The translations under genes and the position numbers were made by a program. From positions 1,859-65,858 of the forward strand of contig DASTHW010000016.1 in NCBI GenBank assembly GCA_035717985.1: 64,000 nucleotides of DNA, given 5' to 3'. Below are positions 4,178-50,110 of the stretch, piece by piece. Within the stretch, counting starts at the first letter, position 1. Each line of letters starts with the position of its first letter. This DNA is from Candidatus Saccharimonadales bacterium. GTDB lineage: Bacteria > Patescibacteriota > Saccharimonadia > Saccharimonadales > UBA10212. The notes below the pieces were generated by a model. That model was given only the letters and a program-made list of their open reading frames with translations, was not told the DNA's origin and did no database searches.

Positions 4178-5095
4178 ATGAGGCAATACCTGGAGCTACT
4201 GGAAGATATTAAACGAAATGGCGTCAAAAAAAGCGACCGCACCGGTGTAGGCACAATCAGCGTCTTTGGCCGCCAGCTAAGGTTTGATTTGGCCGAAGGC
4301 TTTCCGGCCATGACCACTAAAAAACTTTTTATGCGCGGCATTATTCACGAGCTGATTTGGTTTTTAGCCGGCTCGACCAACATCAAATACCTAGTTGATA
4401 ACGACGTGCATATTTGGGATGAGTGGCCGTATCGGCATTATTTGATGGAGCAAGGTAAAAACGTGCCCGATAGCAATAGCCAGCAGTGGAAGACGGGTAT
4501 CAAAGAATTTACGGAAAAGATTAAAGCCGACGATGATTTTGCTAAAAAATGGGGCGAGCTGGGGCCGGTTTACGGCTATCAGTGGCGCCGCTGGCCCACG
4601 CCCGACGGCGGCCATATTGATCAAATAGCCAATGCCGTCGACTTGATAAAAAATAATTCCGACTCACGGCGGATTATTGTTTCAGCCTGGAATACTGCCG
4701 ACATTGAGCAGATGAGCAGGGCCGGTCTACCGCCGTGCCATCTACTGTTCCAGTTTTATGTGGCCGACGGTAAATTGTCCTGCCAAATGTACCAGCGCAG
4801 TGCCGATACTTTTTTGGGCGTACCATTTAACATCGCCAGCTACGCGCTTTTGACGATGATGATGGCCCAAGTCTGCGGCCTAAAACCGGGCGAGTTTGTA
4901 CATACTTTTGGCGACACGCACCTATACTTGAACCACCTGGAGCAGGTGGATGAACAATTGAAGCGCAAACCCAGGCCTCTGCCGACTATGAAAATTAACC
5001 CCAAAGTTAAGTCGATAGACGATTTTAAATTTGAAGACTTTGAGCTGGTGGGCTATGATCCTCACCCGGCGATAAAGGCACCAATAGCAGTTTAA
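4178..5095 (+). CDS. thyA: thymidylate synthase
   Basis: Contains RRIIVSAWN and the catalytic-Cys motif [12 protein letters not shown], plus DTHLYLNH. At 305 aa it is a long-insert form. Confidence 0.95.
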
Positions 5096-33893: not shown

Positions 33894-33904
33894 AATATCA
33901 AATT

Positions 33905-34492
33905 ATGGTAAACACCAAAATACGCTATCTGCTTTTTAGCAATTATCTGAACCTGCTCGGCTTTTCGATATTCACACCGCTATTTGCTATTTTCGTTTTA
34001 AATTTAAGAAATGACCCGTCACTGGTGGGCCTAGCCTGGGGCGTCAATTTGTACGCCGCGGCACTAATGATTCTGCTGTTTGGAAAATATGAAGACCGCT
34101 GGCGCCATAAAGAACAGCTGGTGGTGATTGGTTTTTTCTTACTGGCCGCCGGCGGGGCCGCCTACTTATTAGTGCATAGCATTTGGCAGTTATTTGCCAT
34201 TCAGGCCTTTAATGCTATCGGTACCGGCGTTTTGACGCCGGCATGGCGGACAGTCTATGCCAAAAGCGAAGATAAGGGAAGGGAGACACTAGAGTGGTCT
34301 TTTGTCGACGGCGGTGCAAAATTTTTTAGTGCTACCGGTGCCGTAATTGGCGGGCTAATCTTAAAGTTTTATAGCTTTAGAGCCATCTTCATATTGATTT
34401 GTTTAATACAACTATTGGCGGGCATTGTCGCGCTAAGCCTGCTCAAAAATAAATCTAAAAGAGAGGCCGAAATCAACCTCTCTTTATCTTAA
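33905..34492 (+). CDS. MFS-like six-TM membrane protein
   Basis: Track ORF 33815..34492 overlaps tRNA-Glu, so I trimmed it to the ATG at 33905 (MVNTKIRYLLF...). It is hydrophobic with about six helices. The family call is weak. Confidence 0.5.
   Translation: MVNTKIRYLLFSNYLNLLGFSIFTPLFAIFVLNLRNDPSLVGLAWGVNLYAAALMILLFGKYEDRWRHKEQLVVIGFFLLAAGGAAYLLVHSIWQLFAIQAFNAIGTGVLTPAWRTVYAKSEDKGRETLEWSFVDGGAKFFSATGAVIGGLILKFYSFRAIFILICLIQLLAGIVALSLLKNKSKREAEINLSLS
34458..34485. terminator. bidirectional hairpin shared by the MFS-like gene and the minus-strand KGG operon
   Basis: aaagagagg, a 10-nt loop, cctctcttt. On the minus strand a U-rich run follows. Confidence 0.5.
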
Positions 34493-34502
34493 AATTCAGC
34501 CT

Positions 34503-34622
34503 CTACTGATTGTCAGAACTAGTTTTTTTTCGACCTCGCCGGCTGGCTCGGCCGCCCATGGCGGCTATTTCACTGCGGCGTTTTGGATCCATGGCCGCAA
34601 AACCTCTTTTACTGTTTGCCAT
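34503..34622 (-). CDS. small KGG-repeat stress-induced protein (39 aa)
   Basis: Below the track cutoff. My translation: MANSKRGFAAMDPKRRSEIAAMGGRASRRGRKKTSSDNQ. The pattern GFAxMDPxxxxEIAxxGG is typical of KGG/GsiB-type repeats. Confidence 0.55.
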   Translation of the reverse strand: MANSKRGFAAMDPKRRSEIAAMGGRASRRGRKKTSSDNQ

Positions 34623-34627
34623 ATAGC

Positions 34628-34765
34628 TTACTCCCTACTATTGCGCCGGCGCCGGCCACCACCACTGGCTTTACCGCCTTCGCGGGCGACCCTCTCTCTG
34701 GTTTCTCTATCTGCGTCTGCTAAACCCCGATTAGAGTTAGAATCTGAATCATCCCTGTTAGCCAT
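34628..34765 (-). CDS. small KGG-repeat stress-induced protein (45 aa)
   Basis: My translation: MANRDDSDSNSNRGLADADRETRERVAREGGKASGGGRRRRNSRE. A strong SD (aaggaggtg) precedes the ATG. Confidence 0.55.
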   Translation of the reverse strand: MANRDDSDSNSNRGLADADRETRERVAREGGKASGGGRRRRNSRE

Positions 34766-34789
34766 GATTCACCTCCTTCTTAATTTACT

Positions 34790-35005
34790 TTACCGATTGT
34801 TGGAACGGCGACCACCGTGACTGTTCTTGCCACCCTCTACCTTGGCTGAACGCGGCTGAGCCTCGGCGCCTTTTTTACCGGCCTCACTCGGGTCGGCGCC
34901 GCCGGGCTTTCCAAACTGGCCTGGGCTGTTTCTGCCGCCCTCGCGGGCCGCTTCTTCGGTGTCGTCCCGGTTACCAAACTGGCCTGGGTTATTGCTGTCT
35001 GCCAT
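34790..35005 (-). CDS. KGG-repeat general stress protein (71 aa)
   Basis: Repeated NPGQFG / SPGQFG and EAGKKG / AREGG motifs, with the SD aaggaggg. Confidence 0.7.
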   Translation of the reverse strand: MADSNNPGQFGNRDDTEEAAREGGRNSPGQFGKPGGADPSEAGKKGAEAQPRSAKVEGGKNSHGGRRSNNR

Positions 35006-35516
35006 AGTCCCTCCTTATTCATTAATGGCATTATCATGGTAAGTCTGATGGGGAGTGAATGGATATAAGTATATTCACCGTACTCATGTAACATTCCTCA
35101 CAGAGGTTAACTGGTAGGCGGCCAGCGCTATGACCAGCGGGCCAGCCAGCACATAAACCAGCCATTAATTCTAGTTGAAGAGCCGGCCCAGCTAGCCTAA
35201 AATTTGAATTAGCCATATGCGGGCTGGGGCTTTTAAAAAGCTACTTCCTCCGTATAGACTTATAAAACTTCAAGCTTTAATTTAAAGCTTTCACCGGTAG
35301 CTGAGGAGCTTTCTTCGGCAAGCCGTACTCTAGCACTAGCTAGCCTTTAGGTTAAAAGGGTAAACCGGGAACGGTGGTCTACTCAGACTAAACTAGCTAA
35401 CTCTTCTAAAAAAGCCGTTTACCCGCAAAAGATTTTTAATCCTCGGCGGGTTCGCCAGCATCAAGTTTTTAGATGATTGGCCCTCTTTTTATAACTTTAA
35501 ATCAAGGAGAACTGCT

Positions 35517-35816
35517 ATGGAAAACACAGTTGAAATTAATAAAGACGTCAGCGTGGCGGCCTACTATTTCCGCAGTGCCGGCGAGCGCCTGCGTTGCTTC
35601 CCTAAAAGAATCGAGTGGGAGGGCGGCCAAGTAAACTTCACCGAGACTGGCCTGCGTCACCCGACCAAAAAAGGCCAGCGGATGGTACATGTTTTCGACA
35701 TGACTGATGGCAAAGCCGATTATCGTCTGGAATTTGACGCCCAAGCGCTGACTTGGAAGCTAATAGCTATCAGCGATATGCACTACCCAGCGGGCGCCTC
35801 TTTGGCCACGGCCTAA
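35517..35816 (+). CDS. hypothetical 99-aa protein, upstream partner of dinB
   Basis: Has the SD aaggaga and ends 17 nt before the dinB ATG. No motif recognised. Confidence 0.5.
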   Translation: MENTVEINKDVSVAAYYFRSAGERLRCFPKRIEWEGGQVNFTETGLRHPTKKGQRMVHVFDMTDGKADYRLEFDAQALTWKLIAISDMHYPAGASLATA

Positions 35817-39558: not shown

Positions 39559-40872
39559 ATGAATTCAAAGGCGCCGATCGTGGCCATTGTCGGGCGGGCC
39601 AACGTTGGTAAATCCAGCTTATTTAATGCTGTTTTAAATCGCCGGGAGGCCATAACAGCTGACGAGCCGGGAACTACCCGCGACTCAGTGATGGCCCGGA
39701 TAGACTGGGCTGGCAAGCAGTTCTGGTTATGCGACACAGCCGGCCTAAAACCAGCCGAAGATGATTTTGAGCTATCGATCCAAAGCCAAATCAGTGAGGC
39801 CGTCGCCTCGGCTGATTTAATTATGGTTGTCATTGAGGCCGATGTGCCGATAACCGAGGAGGATCGCCGGGTGGCCAAAATGGCCCTTAAAAGCACTAAG
39901 CCGGTCGTATTAGTAGTCAATAAAATTGATAAAGACCGCCGGGTAGACCTAGGCCAGTTCCGCCGGCTGGGTATTAAAGACATTTTAACCGCCAGTGCCA
40001 CCCAGAAAACCGGCATTCCTAATCTGTTAGATAATCTGGCCGGTAGCTTGCCGGCCGGCCAAATCAATGAAGCGGCTGACCGCTTAAAAATTGCCATTTT
40101 GGGCCGGCCAAATGTTGGCAAGTCATCGCTATTTAATAATTTAGCTAAAAAACAGCAGGCCATTACCGCTAGCCGGGCCGGCACTACCCGTGATGTGAAC
40201 CGCCTGATACTGCGCTATAAGGGCCGTGAACTAGAGATTATGGATACGGCCGGCATTCGCCGTAGCGGCAAGATAGAGCAGGGGGTTGAGCAATTTAGCG
40301 TTATGAGGTCCTTAGCGGCCATAGAGGAGGCTGACATCTGCCTAGTTTTAATGGACGCCGGCGAGTTAAATGTACAGCTGGATCAAAAAATAGCCGGCCT
40401 AGTCAAAGACGCCGGCAAAGGCTTAATTTTAGTGGTTAGTAAATGGGACAGCCTCGATAAAGAGTCTACAAACCAAGGCGCCATTACCGGCAGAATAGCT
40501 GACGAGTTTGCCTTCGTGCCTTGGGCGCCGCTGGTACTAACCAGCTCTGTTACCGGCCAAAACGTCACTAAGATTTTTGAATTGGCGCTGGAGATAGACG
40601 CGGCCAGGCGCCTGCGGATTCAAACGGCCCAACTAAATTCATGGCTAGGCGAAGTCACCCGCGAACATCCGCCGGCTGGCCTAAAAAACCGTTCACCCAA
40701 GCTTAACTATATGGTTCAAGAGGATGATCAATCCTTTCCCAACTTTAAAATTTTTGGCGCCCATACCAAATTTTTACACTGGAGCTATAAACGCTATTTA
40801 GAGCGAAAATTTCGCGAGCAGTGGCCACTTGCCGGTACGCCGATAAAGTTCTGGTTTATCGAAAAGCACTAG
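39559..40872 (+). CDS. der: ribosome-associated GTPase Der (EngA)
   Basis: Two tandem G domains (GRANVGKSSLFN and GRPNVGKSSLFN, with DTAG twice) and a KH-like C-terminus. Confidence 0.95.
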   Translation: MNSKAPIVAIVGRANVGKSSLFNAVLNRREAITADEPGTTRDSVMARIDWAGKQFWLCDTAGLKPAEDDFELSIQSQISEAVASADLIMVVIEADVPITEEDRRVAKMALKSTKPVVLVVNKIDKDRRVDLGQFRRLGIKDILTASATQKTGIPNLLDNLAGSLPAGQINEAADRLKIAILGRPNVGKSSLFNNLAKKQQAITASRAGTTRDVNRLILRYKGRELEIMDTAGIRRSGKIEQGVEQFSVMRSLAAIEEADICLVLMDAGELNVQLDQKIAGLVKDAGKGLILVVSKWDSLDKESTNQGAITGRIADEFAFVPWAPLVLTSSVTGQNVTKIFELALEIDAARRLRIQTAQLNSWLGEVTREHPPAGLKNRSPKLNYMVQEDDQSFPNFKIFGAHTKFLHWSYKRYLERKFREQWPLAGTPIKFWFIEKH

Positions 40873-40928: not shown

Positions 40929-41564
40929 ATGGCTTTATTTCAGAAAAAACCGGTAACCAGCTCCAGCCTGCCGCTTTACACGGTGGGAGCCAATAAAACG
41001 GTGCTTATTATCGGCCTTGGCAATATTGGCGATAAATATAAAAACACCCGCCATAACGTAGGCTTTATGGTACTTGATGATTTTGCTAAACGTAATGATT
41101 TTCCGGCGTGGACAAATAAAAAAGATCTGTACTGCCAACTCACTAACCAGCAGATGGGGCAGGCTAACGTTATTCTCTGTAAGCCAACGACACTAGTTAA
41201 TAACAGCGGCCAGGCGGCGAGTGCCGTCCAGCGCTTTTATAGGATTTATAACCAGACTACGCTGGCAGTTTATGACGAGCTGGCTATTCCATTTGCCAGC
41301 TTGCGCACTCGGCGGGGCGGCTCAGACGCCGGCCATAACGGCATTAAGTCACTAATCGCTCATATCGGTGGTGATTTTGGCCGGCTCCGCATTGGTATCG
41401 CCAGCGAGCAAGCAGGAAAATCGAAGGCGGCTGATTTTGTGCTGGCCAAATTTTCCAAAGACGAATTAGATAAGCTACCAGCCGTCATTAAAGAAGCAGG
41501 GGTCCTGCTGACCGAGTACATTTTCGGCGGCGAACTGAACCACGAGACCCGTAGCACTCTATGA
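40929..41564 (+). CDS. pth: peptidyl-tRNA hydrolase
   Basis: LIIGLGNIGDKYKNTRHNVGF and GHNGIKS. It carries an N-terminal extension of about 20 aa. Confidence 0.9.
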   Translation: MALFQKKPVTSSSLPLYTVGANKTVLIIGLGNIGDKYKNTRHNVGFMVLDDFAKRNDFPAWTNKKDLYCQLTNQQMGQANVILCKPTTLVNNSGQAASAVQRFYRIYNQTTLAVYDELAIPFASLRTRRGGSDAGHNGIKSLIAHIGGDFGRLRIGIASEQAGKSKAADFVLAKFSKDELDKLPAVIKEAGVLLTEYIFGGELNHETRSTL

Positions 41565-41615
41565 AGCGCTAACGCAAAAGAGCCATTAGGGCATTCTAAA
41601 AGACAGCAAGAAACT

Positions 41616-42069
41616 AAAAAGACTTCCGGAGGGGGTGGGCACCGCCGGAAGCCTTTTCAGGGGACGATCCGCCAGCCGGCGTATCATCCCTTAAATACAC
41701 CCTTCAACCCACCTTAAGCGAAGCTGTCCGGAGGCTCATTTGAGCTGGTTCCGCGCCGGTCATAAAGGACCATCTTTTACGACTCGCCGACCCACATTGA
41801 TCGGGGTCCCCATAACCTAGCGAAGCTAGGTTATGGGGGCGTAAGTTAAAGGGGTTAGTTTGTTTAAGAGTCTTGCACCACAGCTCACTGGTTTTTGGCG
41901 ATTGCCGACTTAGCAATAGCTATTTATACTAAAACCAGTCAGACGCGGCGCAAGATGCCGGCCATAAGTGGAGGGTAAACAACTTAATGAGCCGGTCCTC
42001 TTAAACAATCTAACTAAAAGTTAGAATAGGGGGTATAAGGTACGTAAGTACATGAAACTGTACTTACAA
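41616..42069 (-). ncRNA. roughly 450-nt highly structured non-coding RNA of unresolved class (RNase P RNA is one candidate); strand inferred from promoter and terminator
   Basis: 555-bp gene-free gap. Minus-strand promoter TTGACA-17-TAAAAT (42104-42076). Terminator stem 41623-41629/41645-41651, followed on the minus strand by UCUUUUU. Perfect 14-bp hairpin at 41808-41838. A 9-bp helix pairs 41887-41895 with 41931-41939. A terminal helix pairs 41686-41703 with 42025-42040. Three helices have G-U pairs on the minus strand that become A-C mismatches on the plus strand. Confidence 0.5.
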
Positions 42070-42075
42070 GTTGCG

Positions 42076-42104
42076 ATTTTAGCAAAAAAGTGTCTTGGTG
42101 TCAA
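42076..42104 (-). promoter_or_regulatory. sigma-70-type promoter driving the minus-strand ncRNA
   Basis: Read on the reverse strand: TTGACA (42104-42099), a 17-nt spacer, then TAAAAT (42081-42076). Confidence 0.5.
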
Positions 42105-42119
42105 CACTAGAAAATATTT

Positions 42120-42983
42120 ATGACAAAAGTCAATAGCCTTAAGCGAAATAGCCCTAACTATCCTGAAATTTTAAAGCACATCGATCCGCCGCCGAAACAG
42201 CTTTATTTTAGCGGCTTGGCGCCGGAAACCTGGCTGGGCCGGCCAAAAGTAGCCATCGTCGGTAGTCGAAAGGCCACGGCTTACGGGCTGGGCGTTACGG
42301 ATCAGCTGGCCGGCACTCTTGCCAAGCAGGGCATTGTCATTATTAGCGGACTGGCTTACGGCATCGATAAAGCGGCCCACCAGGCGGCTATGGCGGCCGG
42401 CGGGCTCACCGTGGCTGTTCTGCCAACCAGCCTGCAATCAATCTATCCGGCTGGCCACCTAAACCTGGCAGTTCAGGTAGCTGGGCAGGGTACCCTGATT
42501 AGCGAATACGGGCCGAACGACCCTGTCTATAAATTAAACTTCACTCAGCGTAACCGGATAATTAGCGGTCTAGCCGACGTCGTGATTATAACCGAGGCGG
42601 CTGTCAAAAGCGGTAGCCTAGTGACTGCCCGGTTCGCCCTAGAGCAAGGTAAAACGGTCATGGCTGTACCGGGAAATATAAATAGCGAGAACAGCCAAGG
42701 GGCCAACAACCTCATTAAAAGCGGCGCCGTGCCGGTAACTGAGGCCGGTGATGTTTTATTTGCCCTTAATATAAGGCCGTCAAAGACCAGGGCTAAGCAG
42801 ACTTTCAAGGGCAGTGCCGACGAAGAAAGAGTTTTAAAAATGATAATCGACGGCGTTAACGACCAAGAAGAGCTGGCGCTAAAAGCTCAATTAGACGGTG
42901 GCCAGACATCAGCAATCTTGACTAGTCTAGAAATCACCGGGCACATCCGGCCGGCCGGTAGCGGCCGGTGGGTCTCATCCTAA
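42120..42983 (+). CDS. dprA: DNA-processing protein DprA (Smf)
   Basis: VAIVGSRKATAYG and IISGLAYGIDKAAHQAA, with a winged-helix-like C-terminus. Confidence 0.9.
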   Translation: MTKVNSLKRNSPNYPEILKHIDPPPKQLYFSGLAPETWLGRPKVAIVGSRKATAYGLGVTDQLAGTLAKQGIVIISGLAYGIDKAAHQAAMAAGGLTVAVLPTSLQSIYPAGHLNLAVQVAGQGTLISEYGPNDPVYKLNFTQRNRIISGLADVVIITEAAVKSGSLVTARFALEQGKTVMAVPGNINSENSQGANNLIKSGAVPVTEAGDVLFALNIRPSKTRAKQTFKGSADEERVLKMIIDGVNDQEELALKAQLDGGQTSAILTSLEITGHIRPAGSGRWVSS

Positions 42984-43058
42984 AAAAGTTAACGAACAGC
43001 AGTTAGTGAAAAAGCCGTTTGCATATATTAAGCTCGACTTTTAAACTTGAAGGCTAGT

Positions 43059-45344
43059 ATGGCAAAAAACCTTGTGATTGTGGAAAGCCCAGCCAAAGCC
43101 AAAACTATTGCCCGCTATCTAGGTGAAGATTTCGAGGTTAAAAGTAGTTTCGGCCACATCCGCGACTTACCTAAAAAAGACCTGGGTGTTGATATTAATA
43201 ATAATTTCCAGCCCACTTATCAAATTAGCCCTGATAAAAAGAAGGTGGTATCCGAGCTAAAGAAGGCGGCCGCCGGCCACACCGTCTGGCTGGCGAGCGA
43301 TGAAGACCGCGAAGGCGAAGCCATTGCCTGGCATATCTGTGCGGCTCTAGGACTAGACCCCCAAACAACCAATCGAATCGTTTTTCATGAGATTACCAAG
43401 CCGGCTATCGAGAAAGCCGTAGCCAATCCCCGGCACGTTGATAAACAGTTGGTTAATGCCCAGCAATCACGCCGAGTGCTGGATAGGCTGGTTGGTTATG
43501 AACTTAGCCCAATTTTGTGGCGCAAAATCCGCACCGGCCTGTCAGCAGGGCGGGTTCAGAGCGCGGCCGTCCGCTTAACAGTCGAGAGGGAACGCGAAAT
43601 CCGCGACTATCAGCCAGAGATAAACTTTAAAGTATCAGCCGATTTTACGGCCAGCGGCCAAAGCCTGCCAGCCGAGCTAGACCGGCGCCCAGCCGGGGCC
43701 GAGCAGGCCAAAGAGCTTTTAGAATATTTAGCTAAAGCAGACTTTACGGTCGCCGGCGTAGACCAAAAGCCGGGAACCAGAAGTCCCAGCCCGCCGTTTA
43801 CTACCAGCACCCTGCAACAAGAAGCCTCCCGCCGGCTAGGCTTTAGCGTCCGTCAGACTATGGTGCTGGCTCAAAGGCTCTATGAAAACGGCCATATTAC
43901 TTATATGCGTACTGACAGCACAATTTTATCTTCTTTAGCCATCAGTGCCGCCGGGACCTTAATTAAACAGAAATACGGCGCAAATTATGCTCAAAACCGG
44001 CAATATAAGACTAAAAGTCAGTCAGCGCAGGAAGCTCACGAGGCCATTCGGCCGACTAATTTTTCGCTCGAGTCCGCCGGCGCCGACGACGGTCAAAAAA
44101 AGCTCTATCAGCTAATTTGGCGGCGGGCGCTGGCTAGCCAAATGGCGCCGGCGGCCATCCAGCGCACCCTGGTTATGATTGATATCTCCGGCCGGCCGGA
44201 AAAGTTCACGGCCTCCGGAGAGGTTTTAACCTTCGATGGCTTTTTAAAGGTTTACGGCGGCGGCAAAGACGACGTTATTTTACCGGCCATAAAGGTTGGC
44301 GACCACTTAGAGCTAAAAAGGGCTCAAGCACTGGAAACCTATTCTAAGCCGCCGGCCCGTTATAGCGAGGCTTCTCTGGTCAGACAGCTAGAACAGCTGG
44401 GCATCGGTCGGCCCAGTACTTATGCCCCGACCATTGGCACTATTCAGGACCGCGGCTACGTTGAGAAAAAAGACGTTGAGGGCCAGCCCCGTGAATTGAA
44501 AGAAGTAGTCTTAGCCGACGGCAAGGTAACAGAAAGCGTTCAAACTGTAGTCGCCGGCGCCGACAGATCAAAACTCCAGCCGACGCCGCTAGCAGAAGTG
44601 GTGACAGACTTTTTAATAAAATACTTCAGCGACATTTTAAATTATGATTTTACAGCTCGAGCCGAAGCTCAACTTGATGAAGTAGCCGACGGCAAATTAG
44701 CCTGGCAGACCATGCTCAAAGAGTTCTACGATAAATTTCACCCACTGGTCGAAAAGTCAGCTAAGGCTGATCGGGCTGAAGCCGCCCAGGCCCGGACGCT
44801 GGGCACTGACCCCAAGACCGGCAAGCCGGTTATCGCTCGTTACGGGCGCTACGGGCCTATGCTTCAGCTTGGCGAGGCGGCCGACAAGGATGATCCAAAA
44901 CCAGATTTCGCCCCCCTGCCGCAAGGCGCTAGTCTGGATGATGTCACTCTAGAACAGGCCCTGCCGATGTTCGATCTACCCAGAAAAGTCGGCCAAACCG
45001 AGGAGGGCGAAGAGATTTTAGCTAACATCGGCCGCTATGGACCTTACCTAAAAGTGGGTAAAAGATCGGTCAGCATTAAGGGCCAGGATCCCCTCACTAT
45101 TACTGAAGCTGTAGCCCGTCAGACGATAGCCGAAAATGCGAAGGCTAAGGCCAATCGGGTAATTGCCGACTTTGGCGCCGTTAAAATTTTGCGCGGTCCA
45201 TATGGTCCTTATGTCACCGATGGTAAAACCAACGCTCGGATACCTAAAAAACAAAATCCCGAAGAGTTAGACGAGCAGGCGGCCAAAGATTTACTGGCTA
45301 GAAAACCGGCCCGCCGGGGTTCGCGCGCCAAAAAGCTTAATTAA
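43059..45344 (+). CDS. topA: DNA topoisomerase I
   Basis: TOPRIM domain LVIVESPAKAKTI, active-site ITYMRTDS. The C-terminus has three GxxGPY repeats and no Cys4 zinc ribbons. The ATG at 43059 is preferred over the TTG at 43047. Confidence 0.95.
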   Translation: MAKNLVIVESPAKAKTIARYLGEDFEVKSSFGHIRDLPKKDLGVDINNNFQPTYQISPDKKKVVSELKKAAAGHTVWLASDEDREGEAIAWHICAALGLDPQTTNRIVFHEITKPAIEKAVANPRHVDKQLVNAQQSRRVLDRLVGYELSPILWRKIRTGLSAGRVQSAAVRLTVEREREIRDYQPEINFKVSADFTASGQSLPAELDRRPAGAEQAKELLEYLAKADFTVAGVDQKPGTRSPSPPFTTSTLQQEASRRLGFSVRQTMVLAQRLYENGHITYMRTDSTILSSLAISAAGTLIKQKYGANYAQNRQYKTKSQSAQEAHEAIRPTNFSLESAGADDGQKKLYQLIWRRALASQMAPAAIQRTLVMIDISGRPEKFTASGEVLTFDGFLKVYGGGKDDVILPAIKVGDHLELKRAQALETYSKPPARYSEASLVRQLEQLGIGRPSTYAPTIGTIQDRGYVEKKDVEGQPRELKEVVLADGKVTESVQTVVAGADRSKLQPTPLAEVVTDFLIKYFSDILNYDFTARAEAQLDEVADGKLAWQTMLKEFYDKFHPLVEKSAKADRAEAAQARTLGTDPKTGKPVIARYGRYGPMLQLGEAADKDDPKPDFAPLPQGASLDDVTLEQALPMFDLPRKVGQTEEGEEILANIGRYGPYLKVGKRSVSIKGQDPLTITEAVARQTIAENAKAKANRVIADFGAVKILRGPYGPYVTDGKTNARIPKKQNPEELDEQAAKDLLARKPARRGSRAKKLN

Positions 45345-49235: not shown

Positions 49236-49504
49236 AGCGATTTATAAACCATCAGGGCATTCCCTATTGCAGGCTCTCTGCACTGATGGCTCTATAAAAA
49301 TGCTAAGGAATGCAAGCCGAACGTTTTACGAACATGGTAGACTACGTCTGGATTTTCAGCAAGGCCAACCCGAAAGGCAATTTGCCATGCGGGCAAGGAA
49401 ACAAATAGATAGTTTAATAAAAAAATAAATTAAAAAATTAGAAGTGGAGCAGAAAAATCTTAGTGAAACGCGGGAGGGTAAAGCAAATTCCAGCCATAGA
49501 CTAT

Positions 49505-49532
49505 ACGTCGCACAATGTATATTTTGCGACTT
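49505..49532. other. candidate dif-like Xer recombination site
   Basis: acgtcgcacaa-tgtata-ttttgcgactt. The 11-nt arms match at 9 of 11 as an inverted repeat (core 9-mers at 8 of 9). The 6-nt spacer is identical to the E. coli dif centre TGTATA. It lies in the AT-rich gap where plus-strand and minus-strand gene blocks converge. Confidence 0.4.
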
Positions 49533-50110
49533 ACTATAAGGAGCTCAGGTTGATTAACTATCCCCCTGGCATAAGGGGACTTCTACTAAGACTCCGCCAA
49601 TTATTGGCAATTATTTGTTCTGCCTTGCGTATTATTCCTTGGTTTATTCCTCAGCCTGCCTAGACTGTCTTGTAAAGTCACCTAAAGTTATCCACAGCTT
49701 TATTCAGTTCGACTGTTTGCTTTTTTCCACTTTCATATTTTTATATATTTTTCCCCTTTTCTGCCCGATTATATTTATTATTTCACATTTAGCTAAACTA
49801 CACCTGGCTCCCTGCTCTAACGGCCAGTTAATTAAAAACGCTTAACTGAACAAATAGCGAACTAGAGCGGGTAATGCACTTATCTAAGTTATTAAATAGA
49901 GATAATTACTAATATTATGTCGTTACTATATGTCATTTGTTTCTGTCCTCTCTTTTAGCTACACTTGCTTCAGCCCTTGCCCCGCTGGTAACAATGTCGG
50001 CTAGAAAAAAAACGAAATAGTGAATTTAATTGTTCATGCACAGGCTAGACCACTAATAACACCTTACGAAATACTGACTGCACACTGTTATCCACGGCTG
50101 TGATTATTGT

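Follow-up and report, generated by a model that had tools for sequence, protein, structure and literature searches.

What is encoded in the 555 bp that separate pth from dprA in Saccharibacteria? We address this question in a stretch of 64,000 nucleotides of contig DASTHW010000016.1 (hereafter the window, i.e., the whole stretch of DNA that was analysed), which comes from a Saccharibacteria bacterium (TM7, Patescibacteria); the nearest relatives of its DprA are found in metagenome-assembled genomes (MAGs) of Candidatus Saccharibacteria and Saccharimonadales. The initial annotation of the window had placed in this gap (41565-42119) a structured RNA of roughly 450 nt and had hesitated between two readings: a divergent RNase P RNA (rnpB), towards which it leaned, and an undescribed large RNA. 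The evidence favours the second of the two. Taken as a whole, the locus is likely to encode a large, structured non-coding RNA that occurs throughout the Saccharibacteria lineage and had not been described before, with an inferred role in trans as a housekeeping ribonucleoprotein (RNP) or scaffold.

A conserved non-coding gene upstream of dprA

The gap was said to hold no credible open reading frame (ORF), and this stands: the ORFs inside it measure only 33, 70 and 32 aa, all on the minus strand, and a Pfam search with the 70-aa one gave no match. A search with the gap sequence (nhmmer) found matches directly upstream of dprA in all 31 Saccharibacteria loci that have this region, with E-values down to 1e-46, and no match in four dprA loci from outside Patescibacteria. 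Between loci, patches of 20-40 nt are 90-100% identical, DprA itself being 45-61% identical. The Saccharibacteria dprA loci share the gene order der - pth - gap - dprA - topA, and in the related genomes examined the RNA is single-copy and occupies one chromosomal position.

Metagenome contigs were scanned with two invariant motifs (AAGGGT N15-45 GGTGCCCACCCC), which gave at least 120 stretches; a profile made from the first alignment recognised at least about 57 full-length homologs among the metagenome matches listed. Genomes and metagenomes together yielded at least 78 distinct sequences of 323-560 nt. Nearly all of them, those of the metagenome contigs included, lie antisense between pth and dprA/topA; a few contigs lack dprA or have a wider spacing. 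The RNA is retained where dprA is missing or a mobile element is inserted (L152, L149, L039, L116, L141 and L161). Across the 78 homologs collected, stop-free stretches are not longer on the sense than on the antisense strand, and differences in length are not multiples of three. The gene is non-coding.

A predicted transcription unit on the minus strand

The sequence predicts a stand-alone transcription unit on the minus strand, with an extended -10 promoter of the sigma-70 type and an intrinsic terminator. The promoter proposed initially (TTGACA-17-TAAAAT) has an upstream TG, agrees with the consensus at 11 of 12 positions and is kept across homologs. Among the 76 homologs with enough upstream sequence, at least five of the six positions of TTGACA are found in 70, at least five of the six positions of TATAAT also in 70, the TG of the extended -10 in 72, and a spacer of exactly 17 bp in 65.

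The terminator, which had also been predicted together with its U-tract, has a stem that occurs in 50 distinct sequence versions and is followed by a run of at least three U in 77 of the 78 homologs. Double changes affect nine and eight of its pairs in two alignments. Of the 30 homologs retrieved via dprA, 29 have exactly the same loop, GGUGCCCACCCCC, and the remaining one (L028) differs by one base. The terminator hairpin belongs to the conserved RNA itself.

In the modelled helices, G-U cells outnumber A-C cells by 388 to 43, and by 250 to 43 once the constitutively G-U pairs are removed, a count that is biased towards the minus strand because the alignments were fitted on it. Since the promoter, the U-tract of the terminator and the G-U/A-C asymmetry agree, we conclude that the RNA is read from the minus strand, as the initial annotation had argued.

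Covarying helices form two domains

The sequence between promoter and terminator folds far more stably than shuffled versions of itself: the z-score of the minimum free energy (MFE) is -11.5 for the minus and -9.6 for the plus strand, and none of 100 shuffles was as stable. When the variable segments between invariant anchors were folded singly for each homolog, differing sequences gave equivalent hairpins at each position. MAFFT put the small helices out of register; three covariance models were built and the homologs re-aligned with Infernal. The 5' region was modelled in two parts (R2 and R3), the R2 alignment being made at a stricter E-value and excluding weak matches on the opposite strand.

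In the 3' core (P6, P8, P9a, P10, P11, P9b and P12; 84 sequences), 91.0% of the cells are paired, compared with 33-59% when the partners are slid. Both sides change in 18 of its 30 pairs, and the alignment has 190 double-change cells versus 47 +/- 6 in shuffles. The 5' core (P2, P3 and P4; 67 sequences) has 95.6% of its cells paired versus 31-50% with slid partners, changes on both sides in 17 of 23 pairs, and 83 double-change cells versus 17.5 +/- 3.4. For both cores, none of 500 shuffles reached the observed values on any of the five measures. The six basal pairs of P1, which are semi-conserved, were followed in 72 sequences: 86% of the cells are paired (24-61% slid), three of the six pairs change on both sides, and there are 20 double-change cells versus 7.3 in shuffles. 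No shuffle in 500 equalled these pairs in cells paired, double-change cells or covariation score, and the number of pairs with a double change (three) is not above shuffles (241/500).

Strong covariation is thus found in about 12 helices and about 50 base pairs. The RNA folds into two multi-helix domains, plus an optional hairpin and the terminator hairpin (Table 1). Its helices change by compensatory substitution and by growth or shrinkage of their tips; the junctions and three C-rich elements are fixed. The proposed structured RNA of about 450 nt is therefore borne out by its stability, its covarying helices and its conserved promoter and terminator. The covariation that the initial annotation had suggested looking for in homologous pth-dprA spacers was found by our shuffle controls, which are not a formal R-scape analysis, and the three local helices that it had listed, i.e., the 9-bp 5' hairpin (P1), the perfect 14-bp hairpin (P7) and a 9-bp helix (41939-41931 with 41895-41887), are all present.

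Table 1. Positions in the window of the RNA gene, its predicted signals and structural elements, and the flanking ORFs.
Feature	Positions	Strand	Description
RNA gene	41614-42071	minus	~456-458 nt; 5' end ~42071 (+/-3), inferred from the -10; 3' end in the U-tract, ~41614-41620
Promoter (predicted)	42076-42104	minus	-35 TTGACA 42104-42099; 17-bp spacer; extended -10 TGCTAAAAT 42084-42076
P1, 5'-terminal hairpin	42044-42067	minus	GUAAGUACA / UGUACUUAC; forms from differing sequences in 30/30 genome homologs
C-rich element 1	42029-42041	minus	single-stranded linker ACCUUAUACCCCC; nearly invariant in the alignments
P2 hairpin	42009-42025	minus	UCUAACU / AGUUAGA; 98% paired
P3, 5' strand	41998-42008	minus	UUGUUUAAGAG; partner 41860-41870; closes the 5' domain
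P4 stem-loop	41958-41995	minus	invariant loop UACCCUCC (41970-41977), C-rich element 2
P5 arm	41871-41955	minus	variable length: ~85 nt here, 20-40 nt or extended in other lineages
P3, 3' strand	41860-41870	minus	CUCUUAAACAA; followed by the conserved junction ACUAAC (41854-41859)
P6, 5' strand	41841-41853	minus	CCCUUUAAC + UUAC; partner 41700-41712; closes the 3' domain
P7	41808-41838	minus	perfect 14-bp hairpin; length variable, missing in some species
P8, small hairpin	41789-41808	minus	conserved UCAAUGUGGGU inside; double changes in 3/3 modelled pairs
P9-P12, four-way junction	41717-41788	minus	
P9a	41784-41788 with 41717-41721	minus	GGCGA/UCGCU; four-way junction
P10	41772-41783	minus	arm of the four-way junction
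P11	41758-41771	minus	arm of the four-way junction
P9b	41755-41757 with 41722-41724	minus	GGC/GCU; four-way junction
P12	41725-41754	minus	arm of the four-way junction
P6, 3' strand	41700-41712	minus	inside invariant GGUGGGUUGAAGGGUGU; P6 is CCCUUUAAC/GUUGAAGGG
P13, optional hairpin	41661-41690	minus	'long form'; in about 1/3 of homologs
Intrinsic terminator hairpin (predicted)	41615-41659	minus	long G+C-rich stem, invariant 13-nt loop GGUGCCCACCCCC (41631-41643), then UCUUUUU
Der/EngA GTPase	39559-40872	plus	flanking ORF
Peptidyl-tRNA hydrolase (pth)	40929-41564	plus	flanking ORF
DprA	42120-42983	plus	flanking ORF; start codon at 42120
Topoisomerase I (topA)	43047-45344	plus	flanking ORF

In our model, the 5' domain runs from P1 through the linker ACCUUAUACCCCC and P2 to P3, which closes a junction with P4 and P5. 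The distal stem of P1 varies freely between species, and no covarying partner of the linker was found in the homolog alignments. P2 has compensatory variants (CGGCA/UGCCG, AAAUUC/GAAUUU and UUAACA/UGUUAA), and elsewhere in the lineage hairpins of as much as about 60 nt are inserted at its tip. The favourite of single-sequence MFE folding, an extension of P3 in which GUUAG pairs with a downstream CUAAC, is largely rejected by the homologs, where the upstream partner compensates when GUUAG changes; the supported extension of P3 has only about 4 bp. Because of this compensation, and because extra hairpins are inserted in the loop, we regard P2 as a local hairpin. P3 itself changes on both sides in 11 of 13 pairs and is 96% paired. 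In P4 the loop UACCCUCC is invariant in all homologs, and the apical AAGU/ACUU stem has double changes in all four pairs. The P5 arm folds as a hairpin in each species when the sequences are folded one by one. The window and its homologs have a semi-conserved motif there, UAGUAUA ... GCAAUNGCU.A.GCUAAAA, which gives the impression of an internal loop of the loop-E or sarcin-ricin type.

In the 3' domain, P6 closes a junction from which P7, P8 and a four-way junction (P9a, P10, P11 and P9b-P12) branch; P13 and the terminator follow. P6 is 95% paired and mostly invariant, with one pair compensated from CG to GC or AU and another changing from UG to UA; an A-U pair is inserted in it in three homologs (L030, L036 and L026). 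Double changes are found in every modelled pair of P9a (5/5), P10 (3/3), P11 (3/3) and P12 (2/2). The interior of this domain has at least two subtypes, of which the window has the first. In the second (L095, L076, L065, L024, L141, L098, L130, L063 and L110), the P8-P12 arrangement is replaced by CCCCGCAYU ... UGAGUGGGCC ... CCUUCARGGU, with P6 and the terminator loop unchanged.

Relation to RNase P and other housekeeping RNAs

Is this RNA a known housekeeping RNA that has diverged beyond recognition? With the 4227 families of Rfam 15 at gathering thresholds, the whole window gave two tRNAs only, and 12 homologous loci (140 kb) gave no match to the RNA. In the gap, scanned from 41500 to 42200 on both strands at E <= 10 with all families, including the five that the initial annotation had named (RF00010, RF00011, RF00023, RF00169 and RF00013), only noise was returned (mir-320, BjrC80 and sR084 being the noise across scans).

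The RNA resembles type A RNase P RNA (RF00010) in its length, its two-domain multi-helix plan, its variable peripheral helices and its single-copy locus with its own promoter and terminator, and a size of about 450 nt with such complexity would fit a highly divergent rnpB, read from either strand. The RNase P RNAs of Patescibacteria are divergent and fall below the Rfam thresholds, and the absence of RF00010 and RF00011 from the gap at E <= 10 on both strands has to be read with a cut-off that does not reach down to the scores, some as low as 5 bits, at which these RNAs were recovered (PMC8172020). Yet the divergent RNase P RNAs of the candidate phyla radiation (CPR), two complete Saccharimonadia genomes included, were all recovered by RF00010 at lowered thresholds, and according to Lui et al. 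(2021, PMC8172020) they 'still had many conserved features'; an RF00010-detectable RNase P RNA in those two genomes argues against rnpB here. No other rnpB was found in the window, but the window covers no more than about 6% of the genome, whose size is about 1 Mb. Three other stretches of the window lack ORFs of at least 100 aa (33894-35752, 49236-50110 and 1171-1898); permissive Rfam scans of the first two gave no rnpB and nothing credible.

The universal P4 core of RNase P RNA, in the Escherichia coli and bacterial consensus, consists of CR-I AGGAAAGUCC paired with CR-V (..ACAGAA..GGCUUA). An exact CR-I is found in none of the 78 homologs on either strand, and with one mismatch in one; the ACAGAA of CR-V is exact in none, and other core strings of RNase P occur only at chance level. 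The initial annotation had likened to P4/P5 a long-range helix of AGAGGACC with GGUCCUUU next to GGCUCA/UGAGCU. The complementarity is there, but it is not conserved, clashes with covarying helices and finds no support as P4/P5: the AGAG in it belongs to the covarying P3, where it pairs with CUCU (~41870-41867), and the remainder lies in freely varying stretches. The strings resembling E. coli M1 RNA that it had seen on the plus strand (GGGUAAAC and AAUAGGGGGUAUAAGGUACG) likewise exist, but they arise from two conserved elements, the UACCCUCC loop and the ACCUUAUACCCCC linker, read in reverse complement; both elements belong to the minus strand, to which the promoter, the terminator and the G-U/A-C asymmetry assign the RNA. 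Nor does the RNA have the terminal P1 helix of RNase P: its 5' end is the local hairpin P1 and its 3' end the local terminator hairpin, both covarying. The S-domain consensus is missing as well. We therefore reject the leaning towards RNase P, given the absence of an Rfam match, of CR-I and of a terminal P1 and the lack of conservation of the candidate P4; it is the least probable of all the explanations that we weighed.

A strong conserved promoter, a single copy and presence throughout a lineage are also typical of other housekeeping RNAs, and 6S RNA often escapes the models in deep lineages. A 6S RNA, a transfer-messenger RNA (tmRNA) or a signal recognition particle (SRP) RNA that has diverged past the reach of the Rfam models is nonetheless very improbable. 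The gap has no match to RF00013 (6S RNA), RF00023 or RF04321 (tmRNA), or RF00169 or RF01854 (SRP RNA) at E <= 10, and the SRP models also lack a match in the window and in the 12 homologous loci. ARAGORN found two tRNAs and no tmRNA in the window, and the RNA has neither a tRNA-like pairing of its 5' and 3' ends nor a tag reading frame. Its two multi-branched domains (323-560 nt across homologs) are unlike the SRP hairpin and unlike 6S RNA, which is a single long irregular hairpin of about 180-200 nt with a large central bubble.

Comparison with other large bacterial RNAs

The closest RNAs in kind are, in our rating, the ornate large non-coding RNAs, among which this one would be a new class. 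OLE (RF01071), ROOL (RF03087) and GOLLD (RF01998) are, like it, hundreds of nucleotides long, combine many covarying helices with invariant unpaired nucleotides and are stand-alone transcripts. They share no match in sequence or structure with it, and no covariance model of OLE, ROOL, GOLLD, HEARO or raiA is matched among the 4227 families. The host ranges also differ: OLE belongs to extremophiles of the Bacillota, and ROOL and GOLLD to loci associated with phages or tRNAs, whereas the present RNA is chromosomal, syntenic and apparently universal in one lineage of Patescibacteria. Instead of the neighbours characteristic of these families (oapA/B/C, tRNA or phage loci, IscB), nearly all contigs have der, pth, dprA and topA. 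Loop contacts hold ROOL, GOLLD and OLE together as homo-oligomers (PMC12286853), and OLE acts in the form of an RNP; by analogy, the RNA of Saccharibacteria may oligomerise or be part of an RNP.

The raiA motif RNA (RF03072), the HEARO/IscB omega-RNA (RF02033) and the smtA motif are also conserved, complex and independently transcribed, and raiA RNAs sometimes lie near competence genes, as this RNA lies near dprA. It differs from raiA and HEARO in having no match to their models, about twice the size of raiA, no adjacent gene of an IscB/TnpB nuclease and a different phylum.

Invariant C-rich elements

The three C-rich elements, UAUACCCCC, UACCCUCC and GGUGCCCACCCCC, are invariant and apparently unpaired. 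Once P6 and P8 have formed, the RNA has no further conserved G-rich segment with which they could pair, and they therefore probably face outward, where they look like interaction surfaces. Candidate tertiary pairings were inspected by eye in the alignments (with no dedicated count), i.e., UAUAC of the linker with GUGUA after P6, ACCUUA of the linker with UAAGGU before P6, and GCCCAC of the terminator loop with GUGGGU; no compensatory changes were seen, the partners being invariant or varying independently. The terminator loop is quasi-palindromic (GGUG..CACC), and the RNA could in principle self-associate through it.

These elements make the RNA resemble small RNAs of the RsaE/RoxS type, which have invariant unpaired C-rich motifs on hairpin loops and an intrinsic terminator. 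It could regulate or sponge purine-rich targets in trans by base-pairing through its loops, either in the manner of staphylococcal RsaE or as a mimic of the anti-Shine-Dalgarno (anti-SD) sequence; UACCCUCC holds the anti-SD core CCUCC, and the lack of an internal G-rich partner would leave the loops free to do so. Such loops usually target SD sequences, which the organism hardly uses: an SD-like motif precedes just 6 of 45 genes of the window, most of which look leaderless, and GGAGGG, GGGGGU or GUGGGC lies within 25 nt of the start of none of the 45. Since SD-like motifs are rare and complements of the loops are absent from the starts, SD sites are unlikely targets, at least in the window. 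Moreover, with about 450 nt and about 12 covarying helices in a rigid multi-domain fold, the RNA is 4-5 times larger than RsaE/RoxS and far more elaborate than known base-pairing small RNAs. A regulator of this type is improbable.

In many of the 45 long ORFs of the window, a -10 box resembling TAnAAT precedes the start codon by 5-12 nt (e.g., the starts at 4178, 12105, 25146, 32498, 39559, 42120 and 46611, and 24896 on the minus strand). Most mRNAs of the genome may accordingly be leaderless or have a very short leader, the starts being taken from mechanical ORF calls.

Genetic organisation of the locus

The position of the gene raises the possibility that the locus acts mainly in cis. It is always antisense between pth and dprA/topA. 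Its -35 lies only about 15 nt from the ATG of dprA on the opposite strand, which has a -10-like box, TAGAAA(AT), 6-12 nt before it; the promoters of the RNA and of dprA must therefore overlap back-to-back. Competition between the two promoters is possible, and their overlap may have a secondary role. The terminator hairpin of the window also has CCUUUUC on its plus-strand side and may terminate pth as well. Strong antisense transcription or a bidirectional terminator could thus insulate der-pth from dprA-topA or control the promoter of dprA, the RNA being incidental. We find this highly improbable. An insulator needs no conserved fold, and here about 50 pairs covary and the loops are invariant among loci whose DprA proteins are just 45-60% identical. 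The RNA persists in the contigs listed above where dprA is missing or a mobile element is inserted, and in most species the sequence that follows the terminator hairpin on the plus strand is not U-rich, so that the U-tract is found in the direction of the RNA only. A riboswitch or other cis-regulatory leader does not fit either: the next gene downstream on the strand of the RNA is the convergent pth. The locus has what is expected of an independent structured non-coding RNA gene, i.e., a promoter and terminator, conservation across species, covariation and no coding signal, all of these signals being read from DNA.

In some genomes, though not in the window, a protein family of about 100 aa adjoins the 3' side of the RNA on the same strand (L016:2983-3288(-), L025:2932-3237(-), L018:3196-3486(-), L009:3069-3356(-) and L036:3166-3474(-)). 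Its members have no Pfam match and share the motif ..DG.L.V...AM.SG....HE..I......LG..AAI.AL... We rejected this ORF as an obligatory partner, since it is found in a subset of genomes only, at variable distances past the terminator, and belongs to no Pfam family.

A few contigs are labelled as something other than Saccharibacteria. Two MAGs assigned to Limnocylindria (Chloroflexota) have a Saccharibacteria-type dprA locus with the RNA: L027 (DATHJH010000005.1), which also has der and pth upstream, and L021 (DATLEQ010000074.1), which starts inside the RNA. Both contigs are probably mis-binned. Among viral contigs, five pattern matches were listed, of which one is a true full-length copy (L161:1-7900; IMG/VR contig IMGVR_UViG_3300049064_000004). 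On the promoter side of this copy, the place of dprA is taken by genes of RecT-like and FtsK-like/PD-(D/E)XK proteins and of two DNA methyltransferases. It appears to be a chromosomal-type copy beside an inserted mobile element, which is probably the cause of the viral classification. Since the one true copy among these viral matches is of the chromosomal type, we rejected a phage or mobile origin of the RNA.

A putative trans-acting RNP or scaffold

How might such an RNA work? We propose that its rigid covarying scaffold would hold the invariant elements in a defined geometry, and that these elements would bind a putative conserved partner, i.e., one or several proteins, a different RNA of the cell or, by self-association, additional molecules of the same RNA. 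Its role would then be a housekeeping one in trans, as a stable and possibly catalytic RNP or scaffold in the manner of OLE, ROOL and GOLLD, rather than as a cis-regulator or a short base-pairing RNA. By analogy with these RNAs, such a role is our best guess. The RNA is kept in genomes of about 1 Mb, and on this ground we argue that its function is important.

Several points weigh against this explanation or narrow it. The transcript, its ends and its abundance are deduced from sequence signals, and the function is pure inference. The invariant elements, on which the proposed mechanism turns, are not amenable to a covariation test. The metagenome homologs were picked by two motifs, and the invariance of both is meaningful only in the 30 genome-derived sequences. 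Alignments made with covariance models lean to the modelled structure; the controls with slid partners answer this, although they do not amount to a formal R-scape test. The distribution was surveyed within Saccharibacteria, plus the four dprA loci from outside Patescibacteria. Finally, we found no description of the RNA in the literature searched, but Rfam and the searchable literature are incomplete, so that an earlier, unindexed description may exist.

Significance for Saccharibacteria

Bacteria have few large RNAs with an intricate fold, and the classes found so far (RNase P, tmRNA, group I and II introns, OLE, ROOL, GOLLD and HEARO) have each led to new biochemistry. The gene reported here is unannotated in Saccharibacteria genomes and missed by current pipelines, which a covariance model would mend. 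A secondary structure supported by covariation and a set of invariant nucleotides to mutate are now at hand, and its function can be tested directly should genetically tractable Saccharibacteria turn out to carry the RNA.

Although CPR genomes are reduced to about 1 Mb, every related genome examined keeps the RNA, single-copy and syntenic; this implies a need of the cell for it. A bolder and, in our view, unlikely version of this idea is that it is an essential RNA machine that defines the lineage, i.e., a new ribozyme or else an assembly, with or without protein, whose scaffold positions the C-rich elements as an active site or an assembly interface. As a chromosomal, single-copy gene that is universal in a group of ultra-small epibionts, whose genomes measure about 1 Mb, it would then rank with RNase P, tmRNA, SRP and 6S RNA as a new class of housekeeping RNA. 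It might be linked to the largely leaderless expression of these bacteria, or to a lifestyle of DNA uptake and competence hinted at by the adjacency of dprA.

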